A stretch of 64,000 nucleotides of DNA. Origin: Pseudogymnoascus verrucosus. Taxonomy: Eukaryota. This document shows, one piece after another, positions 28,803 to 60,296 of this stretch. Positions within the stretch are counted from its first letter, which is position 1. The number at the start of each line of letters is the position of its first letter. Made by a program: the position numbers and the translations under genes. Below the pieces are notes generated by a model, which worked only from the letters and a program-made list of their open reading frames with translations, was not told the origin of the DNA and made no database searches. The stretch lies in the NCBI GenBank assembly GCA_001662655.1, contig KV460242.1; one strand, 5' to 3'.

Positions 28803-29837
28803 CTGAGTATACATATATACACAGAGATGAGGAGGGATTATTCAGTGGCTGAGGGAACCATGAAATTGATACCAGCAATCTAATATTATCAAGGAAGGAG
28901 TGTGTAAGCAGCAATGTGAAGCCACTGTAATTCCTGCTTTCAAATCATTTAATGGTCCACTGTAGTCTATCGCCACGGGGTCTATTCATCAGCAAGGAGA
29001 CTAAAGTGGCAGATAAATCGCCATCCGAAGTTATGCTTTAGCGATGATTCAAACTGCCGACGTGAGTTAACATTCAGAATTTCCTAATTTAGAAAATGGT
29101 AACTAATTACTTAATCAATGTTTTTTAGACTAGACCGTAAGAGTAATATTTTAACATTCTGAGTGGATACACTACAGTAGTGCGTTGACAGGGATAAGAT
29201 GGAGCTTATTCCATTTTTATTGGAGCGAATTCCCTAATTTGGAAAATGGTATAGTGCTTACTTAACCGAATTTCAGAGGACGCATTAACTTAAGTAGCGC
29301 GTGTTACATAGGCACCCAGTGCGAGCCTCGCAGCGAATGCGAGTATTACCCTTTTCATACACCGCCTTTTAGTGTGTTTCAAGCCCGTATTTGACACATC
29401 CCTAGCATGAAATCAATCAATCCTTCAATCAACTCTCAACAACCATTTTCTATGGAGCTCTCCGCACAAATCGACCATATGATTTTGATTACTAAATGTT
29501 GGCTTGCGGTGAACGTTTCTTTAGGAACTACTCCACAACACCAAACCTTTTATCAGCTAGCACGCTACGATAATCCAACCCATGTCCAAGAATATGGGTT
29601 AGATTACACTAACAAAGAGACGAATTAACTACGTACCAACTTGAGTTGATTATGAATGCACTCGAGACGAACATATATAAAGAGTGTGAGGATAACCTCC
29701 TGGGTCATTATATTCATCGTCCAGCAGGGAAAGCATAACAACACGGTCAGCTCCTGACTGTTCCATCACGAGTAATCTATTATAAATTCGAAGCCTTATT
29801 TCCCAAAGCTCCTAGTCCAGCCCTGGCTTCAGAAGTC

Positions 29838-30707
29838 ATGACGACTTACAGCACAGCCGAGCCTCAATACGTCGAGGTCAATGGCACGCGCTTCGCATAC
29901 CTTCGTTTCGGCTCAACAGCTAAGACCGACGTCCCTCTAGTGTTCCTGCAGCATTTCAGAGGCACCTTCGATCACTGGGATCCAGCGCTGATTGATCCCA
30001 TCGCTGCTGTCCGCCCGCTCATTCTCATCGACAATTCAGGCGTTGGAAAGAGCAGTGGCACAGTTCCCGGAACGTATGCAGAGTGGGCTTGGAACGTCGT
30101 CGCGGTCGTTAAGGCCCTGAACATTCCCCTGATTGATGTATTGGGCTTCTCTATGGGAGGTTTTGTGGCCCAGATGACAGCCCTGAATGCACCAACTGTC
30201 GTTCGCAAGCTCGTCCTGGCTGGCACTGGGCCCAGCGCTGGTGAAGGTGTCGAAGGTGGTGACCCGCTTGCTACTCAGCGCTTGGCCACCGCGTCTAATG
30301 AGCAAGAAGCGCGCGATGCTTTTTTGACAGCTTTCTACTCGCTGACGGCAAAAAAGCAAGCCCTTGGCGACACATGGTGGAAGCGCATGAACGCTGCTCG
30401 CTCGAATCGCTCCGACTACGTTGGTTCTGAGGGTACCAATGCTCAGATCGGCGCCGTCATCCGGTGGGGGAGTCGTGACTTCGCGTCTGAAGGCTCCTAC
30501 GACCGTCTACATGAACTTAAGATCCCCGTTCTCGTCGCAAATGGCGACAACGACGTTCTCATCCCGACAGTCAACAGTTGGGTCATTTTCAAGAAGTTAG
30601 CCAATGCGGATGCCCACCTACACTTGTTCCCGGACGTCGGACACGGGTTCCTGAACGAGTATGCGGACCAGTTTTCGAAACTGATTAACGTATTCTTAGA
30701 TGCTTAA
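29838..30707 (+). CDS. Alpha/beta hydrolase, intronless
   Basis: LQHFRGTFDHWDP; nucleophile elbow GFSMGG; NGDNDVLIP (Asp); GHGF (His). Confidence 0.92.
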   Translation: MTTYSTAEPQYVEVNGTRFAYLRFGSTAKTDVPLVFLQHFRGTFDHWDPALIDPIAAVRPLILIDNSGVGKSSGTVPGTYAEWAWNVVAVVKALNIPLIDVLGFSMGGFVAQMTALNAPTVVRKLVLAGTGPSAGEGVEGGDPLATQRLATASNEQEARDAFLTAFYSLTAKKQALGDTWWKRMNAARSNRSDYVGSEGTNAQIGAVIRWGSRDFASEGSYDRLHELKIPVLVANGDNDVLIPTVNSWVIFKKLANADAHLHLFPDVGHGFLNEYADQFSKLINVFLDA

Positions 30708-32349
30708 GTATCAAATGAAGGCAGCACACTGGATACTAGTGGAATGAGACTGGATCCTCTTGAGGGGATGCTATTTGTTATAGAGTTGGTCTTGAGAAGA
30801 TCTGTCTAGTCGAGATCTATTCAGTCTTAATAGCCCTTCTATAATATTATCAGCAAATACCTCGTATACCACAACGAGGTACTTTATTTCTTATATACTG
30901 CGAGTTTTTCTTACTGAGTATCTCATATACCACAGCGTATATAAAGTGATATTTGAGATATGTAATCAATCTTATTGCTATTATAGTAGGGAAATCCGGT
31001 GATATTACGGAGTCAGGTGGCTTAGGGGAGGAAGCTTTGGTCCAACTCCGTAGCAAGCTAGCCCCACTCCTTTGGACCAGTAGCTACGAGGGTGTCCGCA
31101 CTGAAAATAGCTGACCTTGTGACATTGACTTTCAATGGGGACCGATTTACGCTGTAGTTGTTACTTTCCCTACTGACTTTTTAACGGAGCTTGATTCGAG
31201 GCGCAGATAACCACTCGTAGCTCTAAAATGGGGCCACGATGTCAGTGTGGACATGATGACCTACCCCTGTTGGCAGGCTTTGAGAAACGGACTAGGACAT
31301 TTCAGCGGCCGAGGTTTCCAAGAGTGGAATAACAGAGAAATAAAGCTCGTCAATGGGGGGGTGGTAGTAAGCTATTCGCTTCAGAGCGGCACGATAGAGC
31401 AACGGCTCAAGGATAATAGGCGGGTGCATCTAAAAGCGAATCTATTCCATGCTCATATAGAGAAGTAGAAGGTCTAGAGCGACAAAGGTCGAACATATCT
31501 TTAGTTCTATAATATAATTAGGTCTCTCCACATCTTTGCGTTCTTGGCTATGTTTACTGTGCACAATGTGGATAATACAGTCAGCTTCAAAATCGGATTC
31601 CTCTTTGTAGACTCTTTAATATTTGTTTGAGCCACAATGCCAAGACATTGGAGTCATTACTAGAGATATTCTGGTTATTTAATTTTGTCATTATTGTAGC
31701 CTAAGCCGCCTTTGAGACTCGATGATGACCATGTCTTCCATGATATTCTTTAAGATTCGATTCAATGCTAACCCTTTCTTCTACCGTTTCCTTTAAGGCT
31801 CGATGATGAGCCTTTACATAGACCGTGGTATGCATGTATTCCCCGAAGGCAAACAGCTCTCTATAGTAAAATTACAATGATATTCAAGGGTTTAACATTT
31901 GAAGTTTTACGCTCCAGCCGCAGTGCACCATCATCCGCTAGCACCATTATGGCTAGCTAGAATTTATCCATAAGGCAAATGTGCGTTTCAATTATAAGTC
32001 ATCCGGATCTAGCGTACACCAGCGCCTTTCCAGCATAGCAAAACACCTCAACTAATCCCAAAGTTAGTGTCGACCCCCTTATAAAGGCATCACTAATATT
32101 TTCGAGGCAGGACAGCCCATCGATGTTCGAATAGGGGACATATTATCCTACATTCAAGAAGAAATGCCAGAGGAACGACCGCCGTAGACATTACTGTCAA
32201 TCTAAGTATTGCTACATCCGTAAGCAACGATACCCCTCTACTGCCTACGGCTCTTTCGCGAGCGCTTCCCACCCGCTACCAGGCTAAGATACTGTCGAAA
32301 AATACGCCCGATTGTCGCTAGACATTAGCAAATTATGCTGTTTAAGGAG

Positions 32350-33400
32350 GCGTCAGAGTTAAAGGAGAAGGGCAATGAGGCCTACAGACAGAAGAACTAT
32401 ATCGCAGCATTTTAGACTTATTCAAGTGCCCTCCATATTCTTAATGGCAAAGACACATCTCCAGCTTAGATTCAGCTTCAGCTCGATCTCCATTCCAACT
32501 AGGTCCAAACTTGCATCAAGATGAGTAAATATGATGGCCAGGAACTTATGGACATGAACAAATTTGCGCTTCGGCACAAAGATAACATGGACAAAAACAA
32601 GATGTCTAAGGCCCTTTACAGATGTAGTTGCTTTTTTAAAAGCGTCAAGGACCTAGTAAAAGCATTAAGGACGTATCAAACTGCTCTAGATTACGATCCA
32701 GACAATGTAGAAGCTCAGGCTACGTTGAAAAGAGTAAATATAATACTGTTAGGCCTATAAGACCCTACGCTTCAATATGCTACCGACCGTGGGCTTTTCA
32801 AGAAAGGAACTACTGAAGTCCTTTCAGTAACGGGAGAGTGTTCCATTTGTTCAGAACAAATGTATTTAGAAGACCCGTGCCTTTTGCTAAACTGTTCGCA
32901 TTCGTCTCACCAAATGTGTATCATAACATGGCAACGCGACATGTTACTCATCATGGGCAGATACAGAGCATTTCACTTGTTCTATATGCAGAAAACTGCT
33001 GAAGTAGCTTGCTGATAAGCTTAAAATATACGACCAGACGAACCCATTAGATAAATTGTATACCGAAGTGACTTTACTAAGCTTTCTTCTAACTGTTTAC
33101 ATAGCTACGGAACCTACATGATACCGCAACAGAAGAAGAAGGAAGATCTATGGCGAATATATTTGAGAGGTTTAAAGGAGGAGGGTGTCGGCTGCAGATG
33201 GTAGTAAGAAGAAAACAGAGGGGAGTTGAGGTCCGTCGAAGTGAGAGTTGTCGGATTAGTGTGGGAGTGCAGAGGAAGTGATTCAGGGTGTTATTAGGAA
33301 AAAAGTCGAATATTGAAATCATGCGAAACGTTTAATATAACTGCCTCTGCTCGCAGTTTGTGTAGCAGAAGGGAAAATGTCCTATGTGTGACGGCAAACT
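32350..33400 (+). pseudogene. Degraded TPR + RING-finger protein
   Basis: ELKEKGNEAYRQKNY, KALYR and ALDYDPDN TPR motifs; CSICSEQ...NCSHSSHQMCI RING motif; CPMC near 33380; multiple TAG/TAA stops. Confidence 0.65.
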
Positions 33401-33909
33401 TGTAATGGCTCTAACTCTACCTGCTGCCCCCCGTCAGCTGCCATAAACGGGGCTTTCGCAGACATACAATACAGCTTCAACTGTGTTGTAGTGCTCTCTG
33501 CTATACAGTATCGAGATGGTCATTAGTGGTAGAGAGTGCAGCGGACCCGACCTAGCTCCCGGAGATGAGGGCATGTATGGTAGAAGTTTTTGAAGATACG
33601 GATGGCCATGTTTGGGAGTTGATGTGGTCGGCCAATCAGGAGTAGATGGAGAACGCGACGGCTTATGAGAACGAAGCAAGTGAAGTGCTTGTGAAGTCTC
33701 GTGGTGGGAAAGGCATACGTCGAGACCGAACATAAGTAGTGCTGCAATAAATTGTTCAGGTTCCGGGAACTCACTGACAAGATTGGCTGTTAAGTTCCAT
33801 GTGACCTATGGAATAGACGCTCAAATTGCAGGTGCGGTTGCCAAATGTGGCTGAAGAAAACCCTTGATAATGTGGCAAGTGAGTCAAAATGAGATTGTCT
33901 GGCATTATC

Positions 33910-34121
33910 CAGATCGGTTTTGTCCCTGCTGAATCATATTCGTAGCCCCTCAGTAAGTTGGGGGCCGCGCTAAGTTGGGGAGCCGCGAATAATTAAGGAT
34001 CCACTCAATATAGTTCTGACTACGCAGTACGGAGAAGTGTACTATTTGGTGGGTCCTCGGGAAGCATGGCTAAATGTGATTGGTCAGTAATCACCATTAT
34101 CCCAGTTAGGAAATATTCGAT
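33910..34121 (+). repeat. Dispersed repeat family R1, copy 1 (contains CArG-like box)
   Basis: Reverse complement of 44250..44443. Shares AATGTGATTGGTC..ACCATTATCCCAGTTAGGAAATATTCGAT with 48408..48455. Confidence 0.88.
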
Positions 34122-34353
34122 TTCTGCTTGGGTTAGTTAGTAAGTATCGTCGATTGCTAATCGATTTTTCTCTCCCGTAAATACGTAGACTGTCTTTATC
34201 AGAATGGGGCACTAAGATCTGGTCCCTGACGCACCGCATGGCATCGCCATTTGGAGATTATCCTTATGTCATGGTAGGTGTTACTAATGTGAGCACAGGA
34301 CGACGGCACAGCTGAGGCGAGCGCTTGTTGGCTCAGGAGTTGTTGCGCGCCAT

Positions 34354-34369
34354 TTTCCCGTTTAGGAAA
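34354..34369. promoter_or_regulatory. Mcm1/ECB-type CArG box upstream of the SDR gene
   Basis: TTTCCCGTTTAGGAAA fits the yeast ECB consensus TTWCCCnWWWRGGAAA. It lies about 250 bp upstream of the ATG, with TATATAA near 34478. Confidence 0.6.
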
Positions 34370-34624
34370 TATTCATCCCCATCACCAACCAGGCTTAACT
34401 TAGAGGGCGTAGATAACCAAAAGCACGCTTTCAAGTATCCCCAGAGACAAAGCTGGTTTTAGCCACCAGCCTTCGTCTATATAACACTGACTTCATACCT
34501 ACCTTTCGTGCACCATCAACCGCCCAGCCTACTCGCAAAAATAGCATCAATACGAACAAGAAAACATCCATCCTCCCTCTTCTACCATCAAATCACTACA
34601 TAACCGCAGGCTTTCACCCTTGCC

Positions 34625-35439
34625 ATGTCGTCAATCTGGCTTATCACTGGCGCGAATCGAGGGATCGGCAAAGGAATTCTCTCCCAAGTCCTTTCCCGAC
34701 CCAACACAACCGTTATCGCCGCTCTCCGAGACATTTCTGACTCGACTGCGACAGAACTTGCTGAAGTCCCTGTTGCTAGTGGAAGCAAACTCATCGTTGT
34801 CAAGGTCGATGCAAGCTCCGATACCGATGCTCAAGATGCTGTGGAATCACTCCAGTCACAGCATGGTATCAGCCATATCGATGTCGTCCTGGCCAATTCC
34901 GGTATTCTCACGCAGTGGGGCCCGGTCTCTGAGGTGACGCCGGAAGACCTGCGAAAGCATTTCGAGGTTAACACCATCGCTCCGATCAAGCTCTTCCAGG
35001 CCACGAAATCCCTTTTAGAGAAGTCGGAGAACCCCCGCTTCTTTATCACCTCATCAACTATCGCCAGTATCGGCCTCATGGACACTATTCCTATGCCGAC
35101 TATCGCCTACGGCCTCACTAAGGCGGCCGCCAACTACGCCACGTCCAAGATCCATTTTGAGAATCCAAAGATCAGCGCGGTTGCTCTGCATCCGGGCTGG
35201 GTCCAGACACGCATGGGTGAGCATGCGGCTGACATGGCGGGTTTGGCAGAGATTCCGGTTACTATTCAAGATAGTGCCTCTGGTTTAATAAAACAGGTAA
35301 GCACAGATTGTTCAGATATGCCACTCACTCCATGTTTTTGATGAATGATATCTAATAGTCGTTATAGATTGACCAAACTACAAAGGAGACCCTGTCCGGC
35401 AAGTTTGTGGGCTTTGATGGCAACCCTGTTCCTTGGTAG
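34625..35439 (+). CDS. Classical short-chain dehydrogenase/reductase (Nor-1-like ketoreductase), intron 35297..35367
   Basis: TGANRGIG; ANSGI; YGLTK catalytic motif; HPGWVQT; C-terminus GKFVGFDGNPVPW*. Confidence 0.92.
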
Positions 35440-35580
35440 AGAATGCATAGAGCCTTGGAATATAGCGTAGATGTCATAGTTTGCGTCTCGCCGAGAATTA
35501 GATTTCGATCAAGTTTAAGACTCACGTCATCCACCTGTATTATGACTTTCTGAAGTGCAGATCACCATACTGGAACGATC

Positions 35581-35703
35581 TCTGTAGGTTGTCAGCATTA
35601 TCCTAGTTAGGAAATATTTGATCCAATAATATTGAAGTCCGCCGCGCTTCAATAATACTGGATCAAATATTTCCTAACTAGGATAATGCTGACAACCTAC
35701 AGA
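35581..35703. repeat. Near-perfect palindrome: 57-bp arms (2 mismatches) with 9-nt loop, built from R1 repeat
   Basis: 35581..35637 is the reverse complement of 35647..35703, with the first 45 bp perfect. The right arm continues as an R1 copy to about 35750. Confidence 0.95.
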
Positions 35704-35876
35704 CAAATCACATTTAGCAATGCTTCCCGAGGACGCACCAAATAGTACACCAGAAGAAGACATCGCCCCCGAAGACCCGCTATCCTCCATCCTCAACCGC
35801 CTTCCCATTTGTTCACGAGACTGCCGCAAATGCAGGAATCCTGAACCCCTTAGTAGACTCAGCTGATACTGCTAGA

Positions 35877-38766
35877 TCACGGTCTCGACATCGATATCAA
35901 CGAGAAAACCTCCAAGCTCACAGAACTCCTAAAGCCAGCTTTCGAGCACCACCATGATAACATCATCCAGCAAGTCCACGAATATCTCACTCACGGCGTC
36001 AACGAGAAATGCCCAGCACTGAATGCAGTCATCCAGATCGTCGGCTCCCGAGGTGATGTCCAACCTTTCGTTTCCTTGGGCAAGGTCCTGCACGAGAAGT
36101 ACGGTCACAGAGTACGAATTGCTTCCCACCTAATCTTCAGATCCTTAGTCGAAGAGAACGGTCTCGATTTTTTTAACATTGGAGGCGATCCTGCTGAACT
36201 TATGGCTTTCATGGTCCATAATCCTAGTCTTATCCCAGATATTGCAACTCTTCGAAGTGGAGAAGTTGGAAGGCGTCGACAAGGAACCCATGAAATGCTT
36301 GTTGGATGCTGGAGATCGTGTATCGAGGCAGGAGATGGCACTGGAGACCCAATATTTGAAGCTAAACGACAAGTAGAGGACGGCATTCCATTTATTGCAG
36401 ATGCCATCATTGCTAACCCACCGTCATTCGCCCACATCCACTGCGCTGAGAAGCTTGGAATCCCTCTTCATCTCATGTTCACGATGCCCTGGTCACCAAC
36501 AAAGTCCTTCCCACATCCTCTAGTCAACGTCCGGTCCTCCAATGCTGACGGCGACCAAACGAACTTCCTCAGTTACGCTCTGGTGGAAATGATGACTTGG
36601 CAAGGTCTTGGCGACGTGATCAACAGGTTCCGTCGCACCATTCTCAATCTTGCATTCATCTCTCTCATGTGGGCACCAGTAATGAACAGCAGGCTACGAA
36701 TCCCATTTACGTACTGCTGGTCGCCTGCTTTGATTCCAAAGCCGAAGGATTGGGGACCACACATTTCCATCTGTAGTTTCAACTTCTTGTCTCTTGCCTC
36801 GTCATTCACACCTGCGCCTGAACTTCTCAAATTCCTTGCTGACGGCCCACCACCTGTGTACATTGGCTTCGGATCTATCGTCGTTGACGACCCTGATGCG
36901 ATGACCACCATGATATTCTCTGCTGCTAAGAAACTCGGGATCAGAGCCCTCGCACCTAAAGGATGGGGTGGCCTTAGAGGCGAGGCTTTGACAATTCCAG
37001 ACAATATCTTCATGCTTGGCAACGTTCCCCACGACTTCCTCTTTCAACACGTTTCTGCTGTGGTTCACCACGGTGGAGCTGGTACTACTGCCGCAGGTAT
37101 TGCTGCAGGTCGTCCAACTGTTGTCGTCCCATTGTTTGGCGATCAGCCATTCTGGGCAAAGATGATTGCCGGAGCGGGTGCTGGGCCAGAGCCAATTCCA
37201 TTCAAGAAGTTGAGTGTGGGTAACCTGGTGAAGCAGCTTGAGTTTGCTCTTAAACCAGAGACCCTCATCAGGGCGAAGCAGCTAGGAGAGAAAATGCCTA
37301 AGGAGGATGGTGCGGGAGAGGGAGCTAAACTGTTCCATGCGCATCTTGGCGACGAAATTAGATGTTCTGTGCTTTCAGATAGACCAGCTATATGGAGAGT
37401 CAAGAAGACAGACGTCAGATTGAGTGGACTTGCGGCCACTGTTTTGATCAATCAGGGGCTGGTTGATTTGAAGGATCTCAAGCTGTATGTTACCCTTTTT
37501 GTCTCTTATCACATGTTCTCATAACTGACACCTCATAGTTACCGACCACGAGAATACCAACTCGAAGACGGCCCTTGGGATCCAGTTTCCGGTGTCACCT
37601 CCGCTCTCATTAGAGCCCTTGGCTCCCTTGCCATGGGCGTCGCCGATCTCCCCACTGAATTCTATCACGGCCTAAAAACGCAAATTGACAACCACGGCTC
37701 CCGGGGCTCCCTTTCTGGCACCGCCAATGACTCCTTGACTGATCTCAACTCCAGAGACTCATCCTCCACTTCCCTCCCCACCGGTAAATTTGAAACTATC
37801 GGCGCCCGGCGCCCTGCCTCGGAGGCCATCAACTCCTCCTACCCCTCCATGCACAAAGCAAGCACCGACACAGCCTCCATCACCAGCACCACCAGCACTA
37901 GCACCGAAAAGGAGCCCAAGCCACACTACGCAAACATGGACGCCATTAACAACATCCAGCTGTCCCCAGAAATCCTCCCAAAGCTCAAGAAAGAGGAGAA
38001 GGAATTTGTCGCTAAAGAGCCATCCCGATCCTCTGATATACTGGATAGGTCCGACCCCGCCTCCCCCATCTCGCCGCACCAGCTCATTAAGCACCGCCCT
38101 ACGCACTTGAAGAGATTCACAGCCCACGCCGCCGAATTTCTGCTCAAAGCACCTCTCGACCTCTTCTCCGCCTTGTCAGGCGGCTTTCACAACGCACCAA
38201 AGCTGTACGGCGACACCACGGTCCGCCACACGGCCCCGATCTCGAGCTTCCAATCTGGTCTCCAGGCTGCTGATAAAGACTTCGCCCTCGGCATCATCGA
38301 CGGCGTCTCCGGCCTCGTGACGCAGCCTGTGCACGGCGCTCAAGAAAACGGCATCGGGGGCGCCATGTCCGGCGTAATAAAGGGCGTTGGCGGCCTCGTC
38401 CTCAAGCCCGTCGGGGCCGTGACCGGTGTACCAGCCAACCTGCTCAAGAGTATCTACAAAGAACTCGAGAAGTCGACTGATTTCTGCCTGCAGACACACG
38501 TCATGCTCTCGCGTGTTGCTCAGGGTCTTGAGGAACTGCTCATCTTGCAGGAACGTGGCGGGTATGAGACGGTCGAGAAGGAGATCATCGGGAGCTGGAG
38601 AGAGGAGATGCGCAAGGCGGACGACAAGAAGAAGGGCATCGCGTGCGTGGTGAAGGGGAAGAAGCACACATGCTCGCACGGCCTCCACTTCAGTAAGCCG
38701 CGGCACATGACGTTTGCAGAGTCTGCGCTCGTGGCGCAGGAGTCGGGGCTGCGGAAGCAGGGGTGA
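35877..38766 (+). CDS. Sterol 3-beta-glucosyltransferase-like (GT1, Glyco_transf_28) protein, intron 37485..37538; 5' end unclear, possibly degenerating
   Basis: IQIVGSRGDVQPF, HRVRIASH, AIIANPPSFAHIHCAE, YIGFGS, VVHHGGAGTTAAG and GDQPFW motifs; Gly-rich GLVTQP C-terminal region. Confidence 0.85.
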
Positions 38767-40608: not shown

Positions 40609-43130
40609 ATGAAGTCATCAAGTGAGCCCTTTCCTATGATGTCTCTCTGTTGGACTGTGGCAGAAGCTAAGGGAAAGCAATTCAGCGGTGCGAGGTCCAG
40701 ATAGGATAACGTGCTCAACACCGAGAATCGTTGATTCTGAAGCAAGTCTTGGCCTACAATTCGTGAATACAACTAGCACGACGACAATAGATGACTCGGC
40801 TAAACGAATAATTCGAGAGAACGCCTCTCACTATGGCCGCAGAGCTAGGGCGCCTTCACGCAGAGCTTGCCCAAAGCCTCCATCAATGAAGCGTACCGAT
40901 GGTTCCACGACGGGCCAAGTTCACCGATTCAGACTCGGCCCAGAGGGTCTGAAACTGACGTCGAATAAACGAGCGAATAAACGAGGCAAAAGAAGCCTGA
41001 ACTTCACGAGTCCATCCATCGGTTCGGACAAGCAGCCTTCGGCGGTCAGAGCATCACCAGCGCTCCAACGTTTGGCTGGAACTTCTCGCCTGGCAGTGAC
41101 GAGGCCAAGGCAGAGAATTATAGCTAGGGAAAATGAAGAAAATAAATTATTCCCAGAATCCAGCTTTAGGACTGCAATCGGGCCACCACCAGATGATTCT
41201 AGTCAAGAAAACGTCGCGGAGCTCGTAAGATGGACCAAAGAGCAACAGCTAACCTGGTTGAAAACACTGCTCTACCCTCGAGGTAGTTCCCTATACGGCG
41301 TAAGTTCTTGCGCTATGGATCCGTTTGACGCCATGTCTTTGAACATCACCCCTCGGGAGCAGATCTTGATTCGCGACTACTGTGAGTACAAATCCAAATA
41401 TGGAGTATGAAATATGAATGCTACCCTCACAGTTCTCTTTTTTGTTGTCTCAAGTGGTTTTATGCAATGATTTCCATCATTATCAATAGCAGTTGGAGCG
41501 TTGAAGAATTCCAAAGCTTCCGCCCCCAAAGTAAAATTCTGATGATGTGCCTGATTTCCTCTATCATTATATTGCTCGCTCCATGCCGAGACTTTCATTT
41601 GACGATTCACAACATATTTCAAATTACTAACTTAACAACAGTTAAAGATGATTCACCTCTAATACCATACTGTAAAGCCTTCTTCGGGCTTGCAGTTCAA
41701 GACGAGGCAGCATTCCAGTACGTAATCCGGCCTATAGTTTTCCTAGTCGGCATTGGTTCATGAAATCAGACCCTAAATATATCTTAAAATATGTTGGACG
41801 AAACACGCCGGATAAGACGTGTCTTCGCAGCTCATCAACTCTGACTCTGTTAGCTAACTGAACGATGCTGATTCCGAAATTCCTAGTGCTGTGCTCTCTC
41901 ACTACTCGGCGACCTTTCGACTGAAGTGCCGATACGGGAGTCCAGTAGAGAGCCTACTTCACCTTTCGAGTGCAATCCAGATAATCCACGAGAGACTTCA
42001 AGACCCGACGGAGAGTTGCAGTAATGGTACGATGAGTGCAGTTGCCACTCTGATCATATATGAGGTTGGACTCCCCTTAATTAAAGTGGGTGTATCAAAT
42101 GACGCAAAACCGCTGACTATTATGCCAGTCGGCCAATGGATCACTTCCTAATATAGAGCTTCACATGAGAGGTTTAAAAGATATGGTGACGAGGCGCGGT
42201 GGTTTCGAACGGGGGAACTTTCCCCTCGACCTAAAACGATTGATTACTTGGTAAGGGATTGAGTCACCCTGGTGGGCTTCCACTGCCGTCATATATCCAG
42301 CAAGAGCTTGGAGCAGAGGTGAATATATATGAGTTGCGGACAAGTGTTGCGCTCCTTTTCGAAGCCAACTTCAATGTTCTGAGAAAGCAGCCTAACATAC
42401 TCTACTAACTCAAACCAGGGCAGATTTGAACACGGCCAATGACTTGTGGCAGCCTCCACGCTTTCCCGCCTTTGAGCCCCCGCTCGCCGTACTCCCTCCT
42501 ACGGAAACACGTTTCTGCCACCAGGAAACTACACAATTCGGAGTGCCATCGTCCATCATGCCTTCTACCAAACCAAATATTGACACCGTCATCGATGAAC
42601 TCAGAACCTTCGCCACCGAACTGGCAGTAGTAAGCCGATCCCTCAGTCCTCTCAACCGTTCCCGCATCCAAATCAGCGACGAAATTCAGCACATGGAACG
42701 CAGGATTTTCGACCTGATTCACAACCCTCCCGCATTCAAGAACCCGCTCGACCATTCCTGTGCCATTGCAGCTCTGATATACTTGCGTGCAAATTTGCGA
42801 GACAACTTCTGCAACTTCGGCGTTGTCAAAACGAGCAAACTCCAAGTTGCGTTGCAATCAGTCTTTGAGCTGGCTGATTTGTGGAAGTGGGGCTTGGATG
42901 TGCGGAGTCGAGAGAAACTTGTCTGGGCGGTGGGATTTGGCGCGGTGTCTAGTGATGGTGGACCTGAGAAGCCGTGGTTTGTGAGACTGTTTAGGGATCT
43001 TTGCGACACATTTGAATTGCGAAGGTGGGAGCGTGTGAAAGATATTTTCAGAACTGTGTTGTGGCAGGACGAACTGGATGATGAGGGCATTAGACTTTGG
43101 GAGGAGGTGCAGAAGACTCGGTGTGGGTAA
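40609..43130 (+). CDS. Fungal_trans_2-type transcription factor-like protein without Zn2Cys6 cluster, multi-exon (first intron 40622..40685)
   Basis: N-terminal LQFVNTT...AKRIIRENASHY; MDPFDAM; AIQIIHERL; HMRGLKDMVTRRGG; LITW/ADL; W..VKDIFRTVLW. No CxxCx6C upstream. Confidence 0.8.
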
Positions 43131-44180: not shown

Positions 44181-44222
44181 GCTTTGTCCGTTTGCATATT
44201 GTCTCCGATCGACTGTCGTAAT

Positions 44223-44443
44223 AGGCGCGGCGGGCTTCAATAATATTAGATCGAATATTTCCTAACTAGGATAATGGTGATTACCGACCAATTACATTTA
44301 GCCATGCTTCCTAAGGACCAACCAAATAGTACACTACTCTGTAATGCTCTGTCAGAACTATATTAAGTGGATCCGTAGGTGCGCGGCCCCTTAACTTAGT
44401 AAGGGACCGCAAATCCTATTTAGTAGGGGCTAAACGGATCTAG
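44223..44443 (-). repeat. Dispersed repeat family R1, long inverted copy
   Basis: Matches 35642..35750 directly and 33910..34121 as reverse complement. Confidence 0.88.
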
Positions 44444-46165: not shown

Positions 46166-46229
46166 AAGGAGCGCAGTACAGGATATCACAGGGAAGATCG
46201 GGTTGGGGCGAGGTGGCCTAGAAAATCTT

Positions 46230-47173: not shown

Positions 47174-48026
47174 TTAAAAAGTATCGTATAGGTTGTTCAA
47201 TGGCTGTACAGCCTCCTTCCAAGCTGGTCTTTCGCTAACTGTCTCCCACCAGTGTTTTAGATGCTTCCTCTCTAGTATTAACCCTTGATACCCCACCTTT
47301 AGAAGCATGTGTAGAAGAGGCATGTAAAATCCGTCAACCAAGGAATATTGCCTCCCTGCCATGAAACTCTGCTTCGAAAGAATCCTATCAATAATATCCA
47401 GATTGACATTAAGAGTCTGAAGGAGAGGTAAAATTTCGTCCTCAGGGACCACTTTGCCTTGGAATCTGCTCGTTGCATACATTAGCCAGTAGTTTTTTTA
47501 AGTAACGCGTCAAATCCACTTCCGCTACTGAATCAATGACTGACCTGGCAATAATCTCCTTAAGAACCAGAGGCTGAGCAAAGTGGTCAAATTGTGTAAG
47601 CTCTATAGAAGCAGCTTCTTCAAAGAGTGCGATCGACCTGCTATTCTCCACATCCGGTATTAGAGGCTTCCCGAGGCTGCTGTATTTCCAGGCAACGTAT
47701 CGAGCTATGGCGCGTGATTCTAGCTAGTGGTATCAGCAATTATTACTCTGAGACTACTCCAGGTCTTAAACAGTACCGAAAAGAGTGAAGTCTCCTTCAG
47801 TTAAGACGGGGACCTTGCCAAATGGATTGAGAGCTAGGTAATCAGGTCTCTGCTTGCAGTTAGTCGCCAGCTCTGATATTTTCATATGGGAAGAAATAGA
47901 GACCTTCTGTTCTTGAGCCGACAAGTTTAATGAAATTTCTTCCACAGTCATTCCTTTCTCAAGAAGTGCATGACGAGCACGGAGCGTATTCCAAGAGCTT
48001 ACCGCTCCGTATAGCTTGATAGACAT
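47174..48026 (-). CDS. Glutathione S-transferase, 4 exons
   Basis: IKLYG; EQK/RPDYLALNPFGKVPVL; LF/ESRAIARYV; FMAGRQYSLVD; WWETVSERPAW. Confidence 0.9.
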
Positions 48027-48407: not shown

Positions 48408-48482
48408 AATGTGATTGGTCGGTAACCACCATTATCCCAGTTAGGAAATATTCGATCCAATATATTGAACTCCGCCGCGCCT
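48408..48482 (+). repeat. Dispersed repeat family R1, short copy between GST promoter and TF 3' end
   Basis: AATGTGATTGGTCGGTAACCACCATTATCCCAGTTAGGAAATATTCGATCCAATATATTGAACTCCGCCGCGCC matches the other R1 copies. Confidence 0.88.
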
Positions 48483-48631
48483 CATCTTGTGACGACATTG
48501 AAGAGCAGAAGTAAAATCAAGGGAGATATAGAAGCTTCTTCGAGCGATTTATATTCGTAAGCCGTTTAACTCGTATTATTCATCCGAATCCTTCGATATC
48601 ATCTATCTAACGTCGTTCCAGTCTCCCTCTT

Positions 48632-50438
48632 TCATGATGTAGCCGTCATTTCAGCCCAGACGATGGTAAGATACCGATCGCTAATATCATCAAACCAGGC
48701 GAGTTCTCTGAGTTGATTCCTGAGTTGATCCTTGTCTTGAATTCCCAGAGTTTCCAAGATTAGCGCCAGAAGGTTGATGAAATAATCGCTGCTCTCTCCT
48801 GGAGGGCTTGCTGCGGCCCCTAAAAATATCATCCATACAACAAATCCCAAGACCTGTCCCTCGATAACCTGGGTAGTAAATGCGCACTTCACAAATAATC
48901 GAAGTCTTTCCGTTAGAGGGAGGTGAATTCTTGCCATTCTTGGGATCTCCCGTATTATCAAGTGCAGATATAGGATCGCGGCGACCGAAAATGCTTTGTA
49001 CAAACTTGAAGCCTCACACGAGTTACATTTCGCGAGGTCCATAAGCAGACGGTGATTGACAAGATATATGACATGGCTAATGGTCTTCCTCTCCTCCAGT
49101 GATAGTTCACTCGCCTTCGCCTTAGCTGCTGAGATTTGTTGTAAAGTTTCCCATACATCAAAGTTGATATGTTCATTGAGACTAAACATGCTCGGACCTT
49201 CTTTATATTGTGCGATAGGCAAGTACTTGATTGCGATATCTTCGAGGATAACCGCCAGAGGACCAGGGTGAAGTTGATTTGGAGCAATACAGGGTTTGCT
49301 ACCCCACATTGTGGCGTATAGTAGATCGATCCTGGCACTGCGTGTTAGCAATAATGTAACGCAATTTGTCCAAATTATTAACTCGTACCAAGTTAACACT
49401 CGCAAAAGAACTTGGTTGTGCATTAAATTATTCACACCACCTCGAATCCTAAGCATCTCCATGAGTCCTTTCATATGAGGTTTTGATGCGTCTGATGTTC
49501 CATGCAAGGTCTGAGAATCAAATTAGTTCCCATGTGGCTAATTAGAATCAGTCATGATTGTTAGGTGCAAGAGACTCACCTCGAGTTTTATTAGCACAGC
49601 TACTACGGCGAGATTCTCGTCGCTTGGCGGTTGACCAGATAGTAGACGACTATTGATAGCATGAATAGCTTGTCCTTTGTGAGTCAAGGAATCCGCAGAT
49701 GGTTCACGGTGGATGAGAAGATCACGATGAAGCGCAACGACGCCAAGGGTAGCATGGAGCAGTGCTGGGTCTTTGAAACTGAAAGAGATCCAGTTTCCCT
49801 CGGGGTTGAGAGCAAAGGAGTTGATTGTATATGAGGTGTTGTCTGTACAGGAGGTAAGTAACTATCATTCATCCTCGGAGAGCAGGAAGTAAAGGAAAAT
49901 TAAGATACTCACAGTGGTATAAAAGTAGCCGCGTCTCCCGTGTGGTTGGTATTGAAAGACTTCCATATCCGTGTAATATGGTGTCGATTGGCAGTAAGAA
50001 GTGAGCACGACTGGAATAGATGGTCATTACATAGCATCATACCTGAAATTTAACTTCCGTTTCTTTTGATATCCTTGCACCAGATTCATCCGGTGCAGAA
50101 GAAGGGTTATTATTCTTGGGACTCTTTCGAGACCAAGTAGAAAGTTTGAATTTTGTCTGGGAACTTTTAGCTGTAACTGGGGCAGCTCTTGACGAGGCTG
50201 TTTCCGTCTTCTTGGGGCTGAACGTCGACTCTTCTCGCTTTGCGCGCAGGAATGATCTCATCGCCTGGGTTCGAACAACATGGGAGTATGTGGCCTTGGC
50301 CGACTCTGGCCGATCAGTGACGGTAATAAATATCAGTTGCTTAGGCTGGGCCACAGCTTCTGATTGGTTTAAGCTATCTGCTACGCCTGGTTCCCTGCTG
50401 CCTTCCGGCCTTCCCTGGTAAGCATAAAGCCAATACAT
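48632..50438 (-). CDS. Second Fungal_trans_2-type transcription factor-like protein without Zn2Cys6 cluster, multi-exon; start uncertain (50438 or 50566)
   Basis: QLIFITVT...SHVVRTQAMRSF; DPALLHATL; HKGQAIHAINSRL; HMKGLMEMLRIRGG; VLTW/IDL; WMIFLGA; LRELAW. Confidence 0.8.
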
Positions 50439-50811
50439 ATATTACCACCTTGGTTACATCCGCAAATGTTTCCTTACCTAGTTGGTTGAACGCCATAAAG
50501 AGATGTTGAAGGTCCTGTGACGACCCCAGGCGCCACCTGATGATCCTTGCCAGATTGCGAGGACATGCTTCACCCGGTACTTAGTCAACCATTAAGGAAT
50601 TATTATCGTAGAGAATATTGTAATTGAAGTTAATAGAAGCTTTAAACACGCATTTAAAGAAGCAAGTTGTTGACTTACAAGCAGGAAATGATGCTGAATA
50701 ATTATCTACGTCGTCTTGCTAGTGTATGTATACTATGTCGCATAATACGTCACTCTGACTAAGCTTAATTTCGATTAGTCACTACTCCCTACCTCTGTGC
50801 GTATACATATA

Positions 50812-51150: not shown

Positions 51151-53453
51151 TATAGTCGTAATCACGTGGTTTTAAATGTTTTTCGCCACATAACCACTCT
51201 ATTCTCTCATTGATTTTGGGATAACAACCACTACAGCTGGTCATCACTACGCCTTATTTCCTGAAAGTCCGAAGGCTAGCACTCTCGTGATTTTATGATC
51301 GCCTTACATTTTTAAACTGTACTAGTACTATTAAAGCTAGCTCCACTATATCCCTCCATTAGCTTACTACCCCTGCTCACACGTTACAATTTTGGCTGTC
51401 GTCGGCTCTGATCATAGCTCACCAACCTATGCGGCTGGCCGAGGATAATCGTCGGATCGGAAGCTCGCTTCGCTCACAGTCGGTTGAAGCAAGTTCGCCA
51501 GCAGGAGCTACTCCGACATCATTTGCTCCTTTATCGTAGCCATTAAACCCCGTGAAGCTTGTAGACTGTCCGTAGACCTTGAATAGACCTTTGTACATAA
51601 TTCCAATGTTGTATGAGCCGTTGCGAGCGATAAACACCCCACACGAAGTAGATTATACGAGGTAGATTATGCGAGGTAAATTATAAGAGATGATCGAATG
51701 GCGGACAAAAATTCGAAATTCATACTAGCAGGCTCGTTTCGTACAAAATATAACTCTAAAAGGAGCTTCGGGTTAGTCTCCAGATAGCGATTTATCAGCC
51801 AATTTATGCTACAGCGATGATTGATGAGTGGCGTAGGTTAACGACTTTTAGAGTTCTGTTGACCGAGGTAGGTCTTCTTGTGCATGAATCGTATTTGGAT
51901 TGATTGATTGAAGAGCATTATAAGAATGCCCTTATTCTGAAGCTACAGGGGTTACGGCGTAGCATCGCCTAATAAGGAAACAGCGCCTTGGCTAAATACA
52001 GGGGTTGAGTCTAACAAATTCCCTAATTTAGAAAATGGTGTGATGTGCCCCTTATCTCATTAGTACTGTATGAAGCGCACGACCTACTTACTGAGTTAGG
52101 CTTAATCTTTCTTCATTTTTCGGGGTTAAGGTGTATGATGCTTTCGGGCGTTAAAGCACGCCTTCATCAAATCATACGAGCCATAATTTGCTACTTGCTA
52201 GGTAGATGGCCACCAGGAAACTAGCACAGAATTGGAAATCAAGAAAACACTAGAGCGGAAAGCGGAAAGTAGACCCAGTTTCAACGCCGCAGCACATAAT
52301 TGATCACGACGACGGCTGCACGGCACCGGCTCTCTGTTTGGACCGCATTGGCGTATTGCATTTTGTGAGACCAGAGGACAAGCTGCCACTCGTCCCCGTT
52401 GACAGTTCTGTCCTCAAGCGGTTAGGATTAGAATCAAGTGAGGATGGAGATCGTGACGGCTAAATAATGGATCAAAGCTCGGGTTGCTGGAAATGTGAGT
52501 GGAAAGAGCGGTGCAAGCGATGCAGGAGAACAAGAGGTTATTAAAGGGAAGACGATGAAGTATTATGACTAGGAGTTCAAATGACAATTTTTTTGTTGTG
52601 CTGAGATGATCGTTCGACTGTAGTAAAAGATCAAATTCTTCACCTACCCTTTTACCGTGATTCTACTTTAGACTTCTATAAGAGGCTTCACATACTAGCT
52701 TCACCACCCAAGTGGTCGGAGCGAACACGGACGATTATCGATTAACGCATGACGTGCTTGAAAAGACCTCCCATCTCCCCACTCGCTTACCCCGCTCCTT
52801 AATCACCAGAGGAACACATCATCGTCATTTGAAACCAGGAAAAAGAGCCACTATCATCCCCGTAACATTTATTAACAAAGGAACGCGTCGAATATGTCAA
52901 ACACTATGAGAGAGACAACGTTCGATCGCGTTAGGAGAACCATCGGAGACTGGTGGCGGCAGACCATGCTTACAAAGCCTTTAAGCTCTCGAAATGCACA
53001 ATGCTTGTAAAACGAATATCTCATCGGGCTAGTTACTGAATTGCCCTTCTGAGTATCACCGCGACTACTCTTCCGATTGTGGATCTTGCGGCTGCCCGCG
53101 TGTAACGGACGGTCTAATATTGCTAACGCTAGAGGATATAACACGGGAGGCATTGAGGCATGCTCCATTAGTGAGGTCTTTCGGCATTTACGTCTAAAAG
53201 TTGACTGTTACTTAAGGTGGCAGGTACTAAGTTATATGCAAAATAATTATTTCGATAATCTGTAAAAATCTAGCGAATTATGGCATCCATGGGTTTCCAA
53301 AGCGTTCGGTTCATCACATACCTTGTCATCACATACCTTGACATCTCAGGTACAAATCGCACCACTCTCCTATATATGTTCCCTAGTGCAGATGCGCCAG
53401 ACCATCGATCCTAGTTAAAGACACGCCCCGATAGGTCAACATTTCTACAGGCA

Positions 53454-54780: not shown

Positions 54781-55099
54781 GATTTCGTGGCAAGACGATT
54801 CGAAACTCCCACTCTCGAATAATAGTGGACATGTTTTGTAGCGTGGGGTTATTTGTTAGGGTATACAGAGATATTTAGGTCATGAGGGATGCTATAGCTA
54901 ATGAAAATTATGAAGGCAGAATATGAAGATTTAACTTTCAAGGAGCGAAGAGTCATATCACATTTTATCTAAGCGAGGTGCACGTATCGTGTAGTCTTGC
55001 CTTGACAATGCTGCAGTTTCGATTTTCGGAGATTTGTGCCTAAGGCTAAAATGAAGGGCGTGGATCTCATTCGATGTGAATCTCAATATTGAGGGGGAT

Positions 55100-55720: not shown

Positions 55721-56066
55721 ATATCGAACTAGCGAGACATGTAGCATGAAACTCATTATGAACTGCCTCGAGGACATGCGTGATCGGGCGAAGAAATATG
55801 CAACGGTTGGCTAACTGAGCGGGCACTTTCTCAGGCACATCACGAAGCTGCAGATGGGAAAGCAAATTGATCTTCTAATTTGTAACGTGAGAGGGGTGCA
55901 TTCAATGCATCTACAATATCATGCAGAGATGTGCCGCGACACTATTATGCTGATTGAAAAAGCCGCTAAAATGATCTGAAGTGTCGTCGGAATACGTAGA
56001 GAAAAAGAGCGATGCAGAGTCACCCGAACCCTGACCCCAACAAAATCTAGGGACCCAAAATACCCC

Positions 56067-57177
56067 TCACAGATCGAAGTACTCTAGTGCCGTCTGCAAG
56101 TCCTCCACTAAGGGCTTCTGCGTTGGCTTATAACCCAATGTCTTCTCTGCCCGCTCCGACAAGAAGAGTTGATCTCTAGACATGAGCATCGCTAGCTCCC
56201 CTCCATCATCAACATCTTCCCGCTTGATCGACTTGGGAATTGGAGAAGGGATCAGGCCCCTAGCGTGGAAGACCTCTGCAAACTTTGCGCTCAGTTCAAT
56301 CCACCTGTTCAGGTTTGCCCCAATGATGTAGCAGCGCTCGTAGACGCTACCTTGAGGCGTTTCTTCTTGCAGTGACAGGTCAATCATTCGGAGTAGCGGG
56401 GGGATAATGTCAAGGACATGCATCTAGGCTGGTTAGATTATGCGTGGAAGATTAAGAGACCCGCATGGGTTGGAATACTTACGGTGTTGAAACGGACAGT
56501 TCCATCACCAATATAGGGGACATAGCCAAGCTCCTTAGCCTGCCGAATCATGAGGCTCTGAATTACGCCAGGGCTCTTCACCGGTCCAGTGGACCGGCCA
56601 TACAGAGCTGTGGGAAAGAGGATATACGTTCCAATCTTGCCCTCTTTTCCGGCGTTGAGGATACTGCATCACATTAGTGTTTATCTAGTATCGGAATCAG
56701 CCTTGAAAGGCTCACACTTCGTCGGGAGCACCGTTAAGCATTCCTGAATTGATCAGTTCCATGTCCTTGACGTTGGAGTCCTGTTCATGTCAGATACTTC
56801 ATCCATAAAAACTAGAGATGTTCACTGACATTCCACACTTTGCAGTTTGGATTCGCGATGCCAGTGTTTGACTCAGTGTCGACGAAATTTCCAGCTCCGC
56901 TCATATGTATCAGTGTTGACTTGACACCCGCAGGTCTCTGATTAAGGCCGGCCAAAATGGCACGAGTAAGAACCGGATCAAAGGAAGACCCTACATTGAT
57001 AACAATATCATGATCCTTTGCCAAGGCTGCTAATTTCTCGGTTTCCTCAAACGTCCCGTAGACGATCTTCTGAACACCGGCTGTCTCATACAAGTACTTC
57101 TCAATGCTTTTGTTACGCAGATAAGCCGTAACAGGGAAAGTGGGATATTCTTTCTTGAGGGCGATGACTAGGTGCGC
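56067..57177 (-). pseudogene. NAD(P)-binding epimerase/dehydratase-like gene, multi-intron; first exon (TGxxGxxG) not found
   Basis: VTAYLR; HDIVIN; LIHMSGAGNF; TYILFPTALYG; PYIGDGTVRFN; HVLD; SERAEKTLGYKP. Downstream exons look intact. Confidence 0.6.
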
Positions 57178-58626
57178 TGCAACACAATGTCAGTCAATCT
57201 CAACTGCAGTGTTAAGAAAGCGCTTAGTAATCTCTATGAGTTCGACATAGCAGAAGCAATATCAACGGAATGACGGACACCGAGGCTTTTGGTGAATCCG
57301 ATAGCAGTCGAATAGATCGATAAACCAAGAGACTCAGAGACCTGTATGTGTGGTTCTCTGATCTTAGAATAAAGTGTGGGAGAGCTCTCACGACGACGTG
57401 CGGGCTCGGGAGATAAATTCACGTTACTTACAGCCCACGCAACCGGTAGCACCCAAAAGCAGGATTGAAGGCATCGTAGAAGGCGACTCAGTGTTATAGG
57501 ACTTAACGCGGTGGTGACGGGTTTTGGAAGTTCAAGATCCTTTGTACTAGAGGAATGTAGTTGTGCTGAACATTAATCTCTGCTTACTATCTCGTGCCTT
57601 TTATAATGGACAATATGGAGTAGTAATCCAACACTTGGCGTTGATTACCAAATGACCTAATTTTTCTATCATCTCCGACGTGCCGATGACATGGGCAATT
57701 CTCTCTTATTTCCACTTTAGGGAAGTCTTAACTTTAGTCTTCTTCTTGATCTTGTTATCGGTCTCCTAGAACCCTGCATGGCTACTAGCTCAGCAATTTA
57801 CCTAATCTGGTGATTCTTCCTCTGTTGCACGTCATGGTCCCTGCATATTATTCTACACCTGTCTACATACCTTCAATCTTAATATGGTTATGATGATGAT
57901 TCTATTTAACGTCTGTGTTGCTCTAAGTGCCTCTAATTCCAAAGACAGGACGCCAGGAGTAAACGCCCTCGAGGTAGAGGTCGCATTTGGGTTATCATTA
58001 ACAAGTGCATACAATGATCCATATTCTAACCTGGCGAACTGGTAGTACCACTAGAATTTCTAAAGTGGATATTGCGTAGAGAGCTAGAGTCGCGTAGTGC
58101 ATCAACACAAGAGTGGCTTGTGGTACTATAGATGTCGGTTAACCATCTCATTATATTTCTACTTTAAGAAAATGGTGTCAATTTTAAAATCCCTCGCTTA
58201 GTCTCATGTACAGTCAAACCTAGATACACCGAACACAAATAATTTGCATGGGGGAGAGGAAAAAAATCCGTTATAAGGAGGAATTCCTGTACATTAATCC
58301 CTGCTCCTATACAAATTATCCCAGCTCGGTTTTGCTGAGTTCTCCCGCACAAGGAGGGAAATCTAAGAAGTGGGGTATGTCGCTAGCCGAGCTAAATCGC
58401 ATTGCCTGAACCACTTCAGGTTGGATTACGGAGTTCACACCCAAAACTTGCCCCGCAGTACAACTGATCAAGATGATGCCTAGTAGATGCTTACATATGT
58501 TTGAAACTATTACCGACGGATGCGTGTAAGTTCATATTTCATATTAAACTTCTCACGATCCTAAGCTCTTCAACTTCATTCTAGACGTCCATAAACCCTT
58601 TCATATACTTAGGAACTAGGTCCATA

Positions 58627-59956
58627 GGGTTGCTCTACGCCATGGCCAATCCCAAGTCAAATGTTACCTAAGTCATGAGACAAGGTTTAAGTATGTACAA
58701 CTTCGTAGAATTTCCAGGGCTTAGCTAGTCAAAGTCTCCCAGCATATGCCGGTCTAACCGCCATTAAGTCTAGCTACTTTTTCACAGAAGACTAAGTCTA
58801 TGTAGGCCTATACGCTACAAAATATTGCCTAATTAGGAAAATGCGGCCCACTCCGCACCTGTTAGGGGCTCTTTCCTGCTAAGTCCAGGTCTGGGCATCT
58901 TCGATTCATAGTGGATAGTAAACAACACAACCAACTTTAGGTGCACTTAAGTCTAGTCCGCGGCGACTTGAGTGGCGGATGCTACTACGGCCCTATAACC
59001 CCACGTTTATAAGCACTATTAATGCCGCACCAGTCCGCAGTGTGATATCGATCAATAGGTCCGCTTTCAGGCCCCTAGTTAAATTGGTCAAAGGTCTTTT
59101 CTAGGAGGAAATTATACGATAAGTCATACGCTCAGAATTTGGACTTGGATTGAAACTCACACCTTTGGAGGAACCCATTGCGCAGATAAAGCTTATAGTA
59201 TCATGCGCAGTAGAGAGATGGTGTAAGCGATATAGAAATGGTCAGTTTCATAGATGAATGATGAAAGATAACGCGACGACGTCTACCAGATGGAAATTGA
59301 CTCCGCACTACTAAAAACCCCTTCTTGGAGCCTGTAGGGCCAAAAGTCACGGCTTACGTGACGTCGTAACCTGTTTATTAGTTCTCTGAATCGAATTGCT
59401 CCGTCGCCGAGCACTCACTGCTCGTTCAGACATAGAGGCACCCATATCACCACGTATACTATTTGTTTAATAATCAATTATAATCTAAAACAGCAAAATC
59501 GCTTTGCAAACTTCCTAAATAGACTTAGCGATTCCACTTATCCCCTCGTCCGTCTCGGAGATAAATGGCTTATGCAGCAAATTGTTGATCCTTTGGTTCA
59601 GTTATATTTTTCGGGACGGCAGAGCCACTCTGTAGAATTGGCGTCGGAATAAATCACCCCGCCCGCTAGCTGAACGCTAGTCGAGCCACATCCAACGGTG
59701 AGCCCCTGTTCGGTGCGGAGTAGGCCGCATTTTCCTAATTAGGCAATCTTTCGTGTATTAGACATGGCGTACCGGCCGAAATAGACTCAGGCTTCTGTGA
59801 AACAGCAGCTAGACTTTATGGCGCTCAGACCGGCATATTCCGGGAGACTTTGACTAGCTAAGCCCTGGAAATTCTGCGATGCTGTACATGCTCAAACCTT
59901 GTGTCATGACTTAGGAAACATTTGACTTGAGATGGCCAATTGGCGTAGAGTTGCCC
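58627..59956. repeat. ~245-bp inverted repeat pair (58627..58871 and 59700..59956)
   Basis: Long colinear reverse-complement match, e.g. GAATTTCCAGGGCTTAGCTAGTCAAAGTCTCCC vs GGGAGACTTTGACTAGCTAAGCCCTGGAAATTC. Each arm carries a CCTAATTAGG box. Confidence 0.92.
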
Positions 59957-60296
59957 AAATTTTGTGATCTACTAGATGACAGTGTTTACCAATAAAATTT
60001 GCCTAATTAGGTTTCTTCCGCCCCACATTTATAGGCATCTCGTGACGGACGAGGGGATAGTTCTTCTGGCAGTCGGAATTATGAGGTCGTTGCCTCCTCC
60101 GTACGCCGCAATGAAGAGGGAAATAGGGAGATGGAGATACGGGCTAATAATTCGTCCGGATCTAACGGTCTCCGCTCGGGAAAGATATAAGATTGTCCCA
60201 CACCTACCGCCCTTCGTATTTACTGATATTTCCCTTCATTGTCTTTGCAGTATAGCTTGCCTTCCACAATTTCAATTTCTTGGACCTTTACCAAAA

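Follow-up and report, generated by a model that had tools for sequence, protein, structure and literature searches.

Here we describe a short DNA element that recurs in one gene island of Pseudogymnoascus verrucosus, together with the regulator genes and candidate target genes that lie beside it. The window, meaning the whole 64,000-nucleotide stretch that was analysed, corresponds to G000:C37:248001-312000 of a fungal assembly of 30.2 Mb. An earlier note had listed 13 sites in it and had read them as a composite element bound by Mcm1 and a cofactor. A CArG-like 16-mer is present at 13 of these 13 coordinates, and the asymmetric flank that the note saw in most of them, with CAT directly abutting the core, was found in 11 of the 13 oriented sites, those at 59999 and 57798 being without CAT. 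Oriented alike, the 11 sites read (C/G)CATT(T/A)TC(C/T)-N3-TTAGG or TTTGG-(A/C/G)AAT. The consensus proposed earlier, searched as CATTWTCCYNNTTAGGMAA, fits eight of them, which are its sole eight matches genome-wide. A matrix built from six sites recovered an extra, looser CAT+core site at 26930 that was absent from the original list. The spacing of the flank is fixed, CAT abutting the core in the 11 listed sites, at 26930 and in a metagenome contig described below (L109, for which the search pattern itself demanded abutment), and the orientation of the sites relative to the downstream gene is variable. Sites beyond the two local duplications are listed here, with scores from a position weight matrix (PWM) where given.

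26930..26951, minus strand: looser CAT+core site, ~410 bp upstream of a DUF427 gene (PWM 21.8 bits)
29078..29099, minus strand: CAT+core site 1 (pattern and PWM)
29228..29249, minus strand: CAT+core site 2, with only 39 bp, at 85%, in common with site 1 (pattern, self-comparison and PWM)
34350..34371, plus strand: CAT+core site beyond the homology of repeat R1, with a short-chain dehydrogenase (SDR) gene ~270 bp downstream (pattern and PWM)
51965: core-only site near the CAT+core site at 52017..52038
52017..52038, minus strand: CAT+core site ~1450 bp upstream of the regulator gene TF2 (pattern and PWM)
58154..58175, minus strand: weak CAT+core site (PWM 15.1 bits; simulation gives 19 matches of at least 15 bits per 2 Mb)
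59999: core-only site beyond the right arm of the inverted duplication

The pseudo-palindrome TT-x-CC-N6-GG-x-AA is the yeast form of the Mcm1 site. Scored with a symmetric matrix for this looser 16-bp form, all 11 sites reach 16.5-24.7 bits, and 690 kb of control DNA yields 2 matches of at least 16 bits, six of the sites having helped to train the matrix.

The motif is real and is confined to one island of ~35 kb. Genome-wide, the looser pattern CATTWTCYNNNTTAGGVAA is found 12 times without a mismatch, 11 times inside the window at 29-60 kb, and five one-mismatch matches elsewhere; its reversed control has one match in the genome, and a letter-permuted control has no exact and four one-mismatch matches (its own reversed control: 10). 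Because the pattern was derived from these same sites, the genome count demonstrates confinement, and non-randomness rests on a leave-one-context-out test in which the sites score 20-28 bits and no match that high occurs in 2 Mb of simulated DNA. The earlier observation that such sites are missing from the first 24 kb was borne out, with nothing above 14.5 bits by PWM between 1 and 24 kb. The twelfth exact match (L009), beyond the window, is flanked by exons of an M20 peptidase-like gene, where it resembles the 3′ end of an intron. A genome-wide regulon was considered and rejected, the sole outside exact match appearing to be an intron end and the five one-mismatch matches standing at the level of the control.

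Seven of the 11 sites are copies within two local duplications: the repeat R1 holds five (34098, 35599, 35670, 44258 and 48433) and an inverted duplication at 58.6-60 kb holds two (58825 and 59731).

33970..34121, plus strand: R1 copy with the site 34094-34115 (self-comparison)
35581..35750: R1-derived hairpin at the 5′ end of a glycosyltransferase gene, with sites at 35595 (plus) and 35668 (minus); 57-nt arms 96% complementary, DNA fold z -20
44223..44399, minus strand: R1 copy with the site 44256-44277, adjoining a gene fragment and AT-rich DNA of the kind left by repeat-induced point mutation (RIP-like; self-comparison)
48408..48482, plus strand: R1 copy with the site 48429-48450, ~180 bp past the TF2 stop and ~400 bp upstream of a glutathione S-transferase (GST) gene
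58633..58871, minus strand: left arm of the inverted duplication, with the site 58823-58844 (84% to right arm)
59700..59950, plus strand: right arm of the inverted duplication, with the site 59727-59748 (84% to left arm)

The inverted arms are ~240 bp each with 828 bp between them, in which no ATG-started open reading frame (ORF) of at least 90 aa was found. They differ at 0 of 21 motif columns and at 41 of 231 other columns (P ~0.017, post hoc); in R1, three pairs each show one difference in 21 motif columns, a conservation that is only suggestive, the P value of the script assuming zero differences. The claim that the sites occupy at least three unrelated contexts also stood: there are five without shared flanks (29080/29230, 52019, R1, 34354 and the inverted pair) and a sixth at 26930. 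A search of the genome sequence found no copies of 33950-34420, 58560-60060 or 33380-33990 outside the window; the contexts at 29 and 52 kb were checked for repeats by self-BLAST of the window only. Since neither repeat is copied outside the window, the sites are not pieces of one dispersed transposon, the case that the earlier note had held up against its own proposal.

The island also encodes two divergent regulators of PF11951 type that lack a zinc cluster.

40700..43130, plus strand: TF1, PF11951-like and lacking a zinc cluster; F-strand, helix and RFRL motifs at the N-terminus; position of the start tentative
48632..50566, minus strand: TF2 (P0001), PF11951, without Zn2Cys6; LIFITV strand, basic helix 65-92 and KFKL motif; candidate Mcm1 partner

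P0001 is probably the record of this very TF2 gene, hence not independent support. It scores 52.3 bits against PF11951 (cut-off 21), and a TF1 exon, at 20.8 bits, falls slightly below the same cut-off. Pfam gives P0001 no other domain and thus no recognised DNA-binding domain in TF2, and the ESM Atlas returned no match of at least 0.9 for residues 45-130. PF11951 proteins without a zinc cluster form a large ascomycete family (900 representatives at E ≤0.001), and a Zn2Cys6 pattern occurs within the first 200 residues in 0 of 86 full-length homologues. Most of these homologues carry an N-terminal module: an F-strand pattern, (L/F)-x-F-(V/I/L)-x, is present in 66 of the 86 (compared with 6 for a control stretch), and the strand is followed by a V/I-R-x-H-type helix in 53 (0 in the control). 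F57 is invariant across 60 aligned rows, these having been selected for possession of the N-terminus. The stretch reads LIFITV in TF2 and LKFVTT in the L109 regulator, and the family pattern L-x-F-V-T resembles LVFNVV of MATalpha2, a likeness of sequence only. The predicted structure of TF2 has an extended stretch, a long basic helix at 65-92 and a helical domain. Compared with this model, the ligand-binding domain of Upc2 (4N9N) ranks fourth (Z 9.7, root-mean-square deviation 3.9, 134 aligned residues, 15% identity), unrelated helical repeats scoring alike, and Foldseek gave no match at E 0.001. A complex prediction of an Mcm1 dimer (P0152 54-138) with TF2 48-127, made without alignments, scored 0.14 and 0.05 against a mark of 0.34 and counts neither way.

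The site and a TF2-type gene occur together in a second fungus. Scanning metagenome contigs with the 21-letter DNA pattern alone gave at least 117 loci, 37 of the listed ones comprising no more than 621 bp of sequence. Among the listed loci, 115 of 117 have no similarity to the window, most falling within long ORFs of prokaryote-like contigs; the two that do resemble it are L109 and L129, which represent the same site. L109, an intron-containing fungal contig, encodes a protein homologous to TF2 (E 1e-52, with 31% identity across residues 138-497). The site lies ~205 bp past the stop of this gene and an NmrA/epimerase-type (NAD(P)-dependent) reductase gene ~645 bp further, which reproduces the window layout of TF2, site 48433 and GST, but with another enzyme and the opposite site orientation. 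As DNA, L109 and the window match in just two places at E <0.001, namely 31 bp (94%) around the site and the 39 bp that encode the KFKL motif. In a comparison of nine N-termini, TF2 was most similar to the L109 regulator, with which it has the CAT flank in common (score 111, against 60 for the runner-up). The next TF2 paralogue in G000 is only 23% identical and the genome holds one gene as close to TF2 as that of L109, so a chance fungal match would rarely be expected to fall beside such a gene.

The genome also encodes Mcm1, and TF2 has paralogues elsewhere in it. A serum response factor (SRF)-type MADS gene lies on G000:C85 (L156), and the close protein P0152 matches 1MNM chain A (E 7e-41); the Mcm1 of this genome is conserved. 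Besides C85 and the strongest match, on C57, there are MADS-box matches at C20:461562, C26:35155 and C44:113116, one of them with an internal stop. Paralogues of TF2 were sought in the regions around P0001 and PF11951 matches in G000, and six more regulators carry the N-terminal module. An SDR or epimerase-type reductase lies within ~6 kb of each of the six. No CAT-type site above 16 bits was found in five module-bearing paralogue regions and one further PF11951 region, the sixth paralogue (L221) having been scanned for the core only. At L178:8200-8700 (G000:C73), three tandem copies of ~188 bp lie upstream of the SDR that adjoins a TF2 paralogue; two of them hold Mcm1-like cores (19.6 and 12.6 bits) with the flank GATT(A/G)G, a second case of local site amplification. 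In the promoter common to another TF2 paralogue and an SDR (L176:7150-7500, G000:C19), AAACAAT follows four core-like stretches and may be the flank that this paralogue reads.

Within the island, the DUF427 gene, an alpha/beta hydrolase, the SDR, the GST and an NmrA-like gene are each preceded by sites at a distance of 270-760 bp, and a second NAD(P)-binding gene has sites 0.7 kb (the weak site) and 1.35 kb upstream. The genes concerned are given below.

27360..28293, plus strand: DUF427 (NTP_transf_9) gene, candidate target (Pfam PF04248 on two exons)
29838..30707, plus strand: alpha/beta hydrolase, intronless, candidate target (PF00561, E 6e-19)
34625..35439, plus strand: SDR, candidate target (PF00106, E 2e-21; end taken from the sequence)
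35720..38766, plus strand: sterol-glucosyltransferase-like gene with irregular 5′ end and putative ATG within an R1 copy (PF06722, PF00201 and PF03033)
47174..48026, minus strand: GST, candidate target (GST_N and GST_C)
56067..57474, minus strand: NAD(P)-binding oxidoreductase-like gene, candidate target; start taken from the sequence (PF13460)
60297..61322, plus strand: NmrA-like oxidoreductase, candidate target (PF05368, E 3.5e-13)

The two hairpin sites (35595 and 35668) are within ~130 bp of the putative glycosyltransferase ATG, itself inside R1. The statement that the sites stand upstream of intact detoxification ("detox") genes holds for the hydrolase, the SDR, the GST and the NmrA-like gene at 60297, the site at 44258 being the exception taken up below.

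The island is also a region of rearrangement. Between 24000 and 62000 the GC content of the window is lower (0.45 vs 0.52), and it contains broken genes, namely a peptidase M49 remnant at ~26 kb, a fragment at 43.2-44.1 kb and what we read as a kinase-like remnant at ~53.5-54.7 kb. RIP-like DNA occurs at 44-46 and 54 kb, and core-type genes resume to the right of the window. Comparison of four other sequencing runs over 28850-36000 showed this region to be unstable. In run X5 (organism D) the block with the SDR and glycosyltransferase genes is inverted relative to the window, from ~33.7-33.8 to 40.2 kb (33727-40190); one contig passes from 33726 into minus-strand sequence, and at 33803 there is a loose end that aligns with the minus strand at 40190. 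The ends of the inversion do not coincide with sites. The same run has ~440 extra bases at 35837-35843 and an insertion with inverted ends at 29100-29103, adjoining site 1, whose end looks like that of a Fot1/pogo-type element. The segment 33542-33960 is multi-copy in organism G (run X9) and single-copy in G000, and a sharp boundary at 33819 is common to X5, X7 and X9; R1 may border a repeat in relatives. Elsewhere in the window, a 12-nt unit is repeated ten times in tandem at 21868-22011, within the ORF 21275-22057, and Rfam gave no match over 24-64 kb.

The reading we favour, at slightly better than even, is that Mcm1 binds the core and that TF2 docks on Mcm1 and reads the CAT flank, the whole being a local module, unproven as function. 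An Mcm1 dimer would bind the 16-bp core, judging from its likeness to the known site. TF2 would dock on it through the N-terminal L-x-F-x-T stretch, as MATalpha2 does, and would read CAT with the basic helix that follows the strand, and its helical C-terminal domain would probably sense a small molecule or inducer. The complex would switch on the neighbouring reductases, the GST, the hydrolase and perhaps TF2 itself, the site at 52017..52038 suggesting possible autoregulation, and the short local duplications described above would have carried the site to new genes. The composite part of the earlier proposal gains support, because the position of the flank is fixed, the site recurs in L109 beside a homologous regulator and a reductase, and the repeats lack outside copies; its "detox regulon" is too wide, because the element is confined to one island and "detox" was drawn from family names only. 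The cofactor had been left unnamed; the strongest candidate for it is TF2, the nearby PF11951 gene that lacks a zinc cluster.

The paralogues bear on this reading through their promoters. Those of the paralogue reductases score above 226 ORF-upstream kilobases for the Mcm1 core (p 0.0009-0.012) and above 20 control SDR promoters (p 0.047, 0.001 and 0.002 with three matrices; simple count p 0.0008), which suggests that the core may be general to the TF2-type family and the flank specific to each member. Several points weigh against the reading. The promoter test was small and chosen post hoc, its control promoters were slightly more GC-rich, and after per-promoter shuffle correction the window-trained matrix gave p 0.08, the other two giving 0.005 and 0.007. 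A first partial pass compared only four targets with nine controls, its pattern having failed to recover two targets and 11 of the 16 controls fetched, and gave no significant difference (p 0.10-0.93); whole paralogue regions of 10-14 kb are not enriched for Mcm1 cores (9 vs 5.7 expected, p 0.14). A hydrophobic strand as short as this is poor grounds for naming a specific partner. The strict CC(A/T)6GG core occurs in only three of the 11 CAT-flanked sites (29230, 58825 and 59731), the other eight deviating from it; no intact gene was found downstream of site 44258; and, among the matches listed, L109 is the one independent locus outside the window.

Those eight deviating cores would suit a model in which TF2, or a TF2/TF1 pair, binds the pseudo-palindrome alone via its basic helix and the likeness to an Mcm1 site is incidental. 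The site does track the TF2 subfamily and the structure model does supply the long helix, but the core at 58825/59731 is one base from the palindromic Mcm1 site quoted in the earlier note, the one-sided flank fits a core-binder with a one-sided partner, and the paralogue targets keep the core and change the flank; we regard this model as distinctly unlikely. Alternatively, the sites could be functional Mcm1 sites whose CAT is recognised either by Mcm1 or by a partner encoded at an unlinked locus, with TF2 a mere neighbour. Canonical Mcm1-like sites do exist elsewhere in G000 (10 matches, 1 in the control), Mcm1 has many partners (PMC2253631) and McmA works with ClrB in Aspergillus (PMC5468973). 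An unlinked partner would leave unexplained why the genome has no CAT form elsewhere and why this form recurs 205 bp from the TF2 homologue of L109, and we consider this alternative unlikely, if worth keeping in view. It is improbable, in our estimate, that the sites are non-regulatory by-products, either decayed ends or pieces of mobile elements or recombination sites, spread by local rearrangement. Such an origin would agree with the location of seven of 11 sites in local repeats whose shared part is centred on the motif, with the instability of the region (the X5 inversion and insertions, the RIP-like stretches) and with the resemblance of the 58.6-60 kb arms to terminal inverted repeats. 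It agrees poorly with repeats that have no copy outside the window, with several sites that have no common flank, with inversion ends (~33.7-33.8 and 40.2 kb) that lie away from the sites, with a site kept in L109 without the repeat, and with inverted arms whose many differences all avoid the motif.

Among known systems, Arg81, which senses a ligand, has both a PF11951 domain and a zinc cluster, and ClrB is a Zn2Cys6 protein. The arrangement proposed here, with Mcm1 on the core and TF2 on the flank, resembles MATalpha2-Mcm1, Yox1-Mcm1 and Fkh2-Mcm1 in its Mcm1-type core, its fixed flank and the short aromatic stretch of the partner. MATalpha2 contacts Mcm1 through LVFNVV, residues 114-119 (PMC4591686), the partners of Mcm1 place short aromatic peptides in a single pocket (PMC3566586), and those of Yox1, Fkh2 and SAP-1 occupy the same pocket (PMC3566586, PMC3649975). 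In those systems, however, the partner has a homeodomain or forkhead domain and a site set apart from the core, whereas TF2 lacks any recognised DNA-binding domain, CAT and core are here contiguous, and the candidate targets are clustered neighbours. The ArgR-Mcm1 complex of S. cerevisiae (Arg80, Arg81 and Mcm1) is similarly a metabolic regulon under Mcm1 and its partners (PMC2253631), but Arg81 requires Arg80 and the TF2 family lacks the zinc cluster (0/86). McmA-ClrB at the CeRE of Aspergillus nidulans offers a filamentous-fungal Mcm1 orthologue that binds cooperatively with a pathway-specific factor (PMC5468973); ClrB acts on cellulase genes, and both flank and target families differ here. 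The likeness to Upc2, which combines Zn2Cys6 with a sterol-binding domain, lies in the fourth-ranked match of its ligand-binding domain to the TF2 model, with a score inside the range of unrelated helical repeats, and TF2 differs in having no zinc cluster. The accessible part of PMC12774827 mentions Mcm1 only as a recovered motif, and in the literature searched, largely without subscription papers and without supplements, we found no paper on the 21-letter element or the N-terminal module.

Fungal genomes contain many "transcription factor domain" proteins without a recognised means of binding DNA, and this locus offers a handle on them in the form of a candidate site, a candidate partner (Mcm1) and the residue F57. 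What would be new is regulation by Mcm1 and a cofactor that lacks the recognised DNA-binding domains of alpha2, ArgR or ClrB; the arrangement is real as sequence, its function predicted and unproven. Extended to the family, somewhat short of an even chance, PF11951 proteins without a zinc cluster may be Mcm1 cofactors in which the N-terminal module (F-strand, basic R-x-H helix and FKL motif) stands in for the zinc cluster, contacts Mcm1 in the manner of alpha2 and recognises a flank particular to the subfamily, each regulator running its own adjacent reductase/GST module and local site duplication recruiting new genes. If true, this would define a widespread new class of Mcm1 cofactors together with a rule predicting their target clusters, and the island would represent a small regulon growing by the copying of promoter pieces of 75-250 bp.

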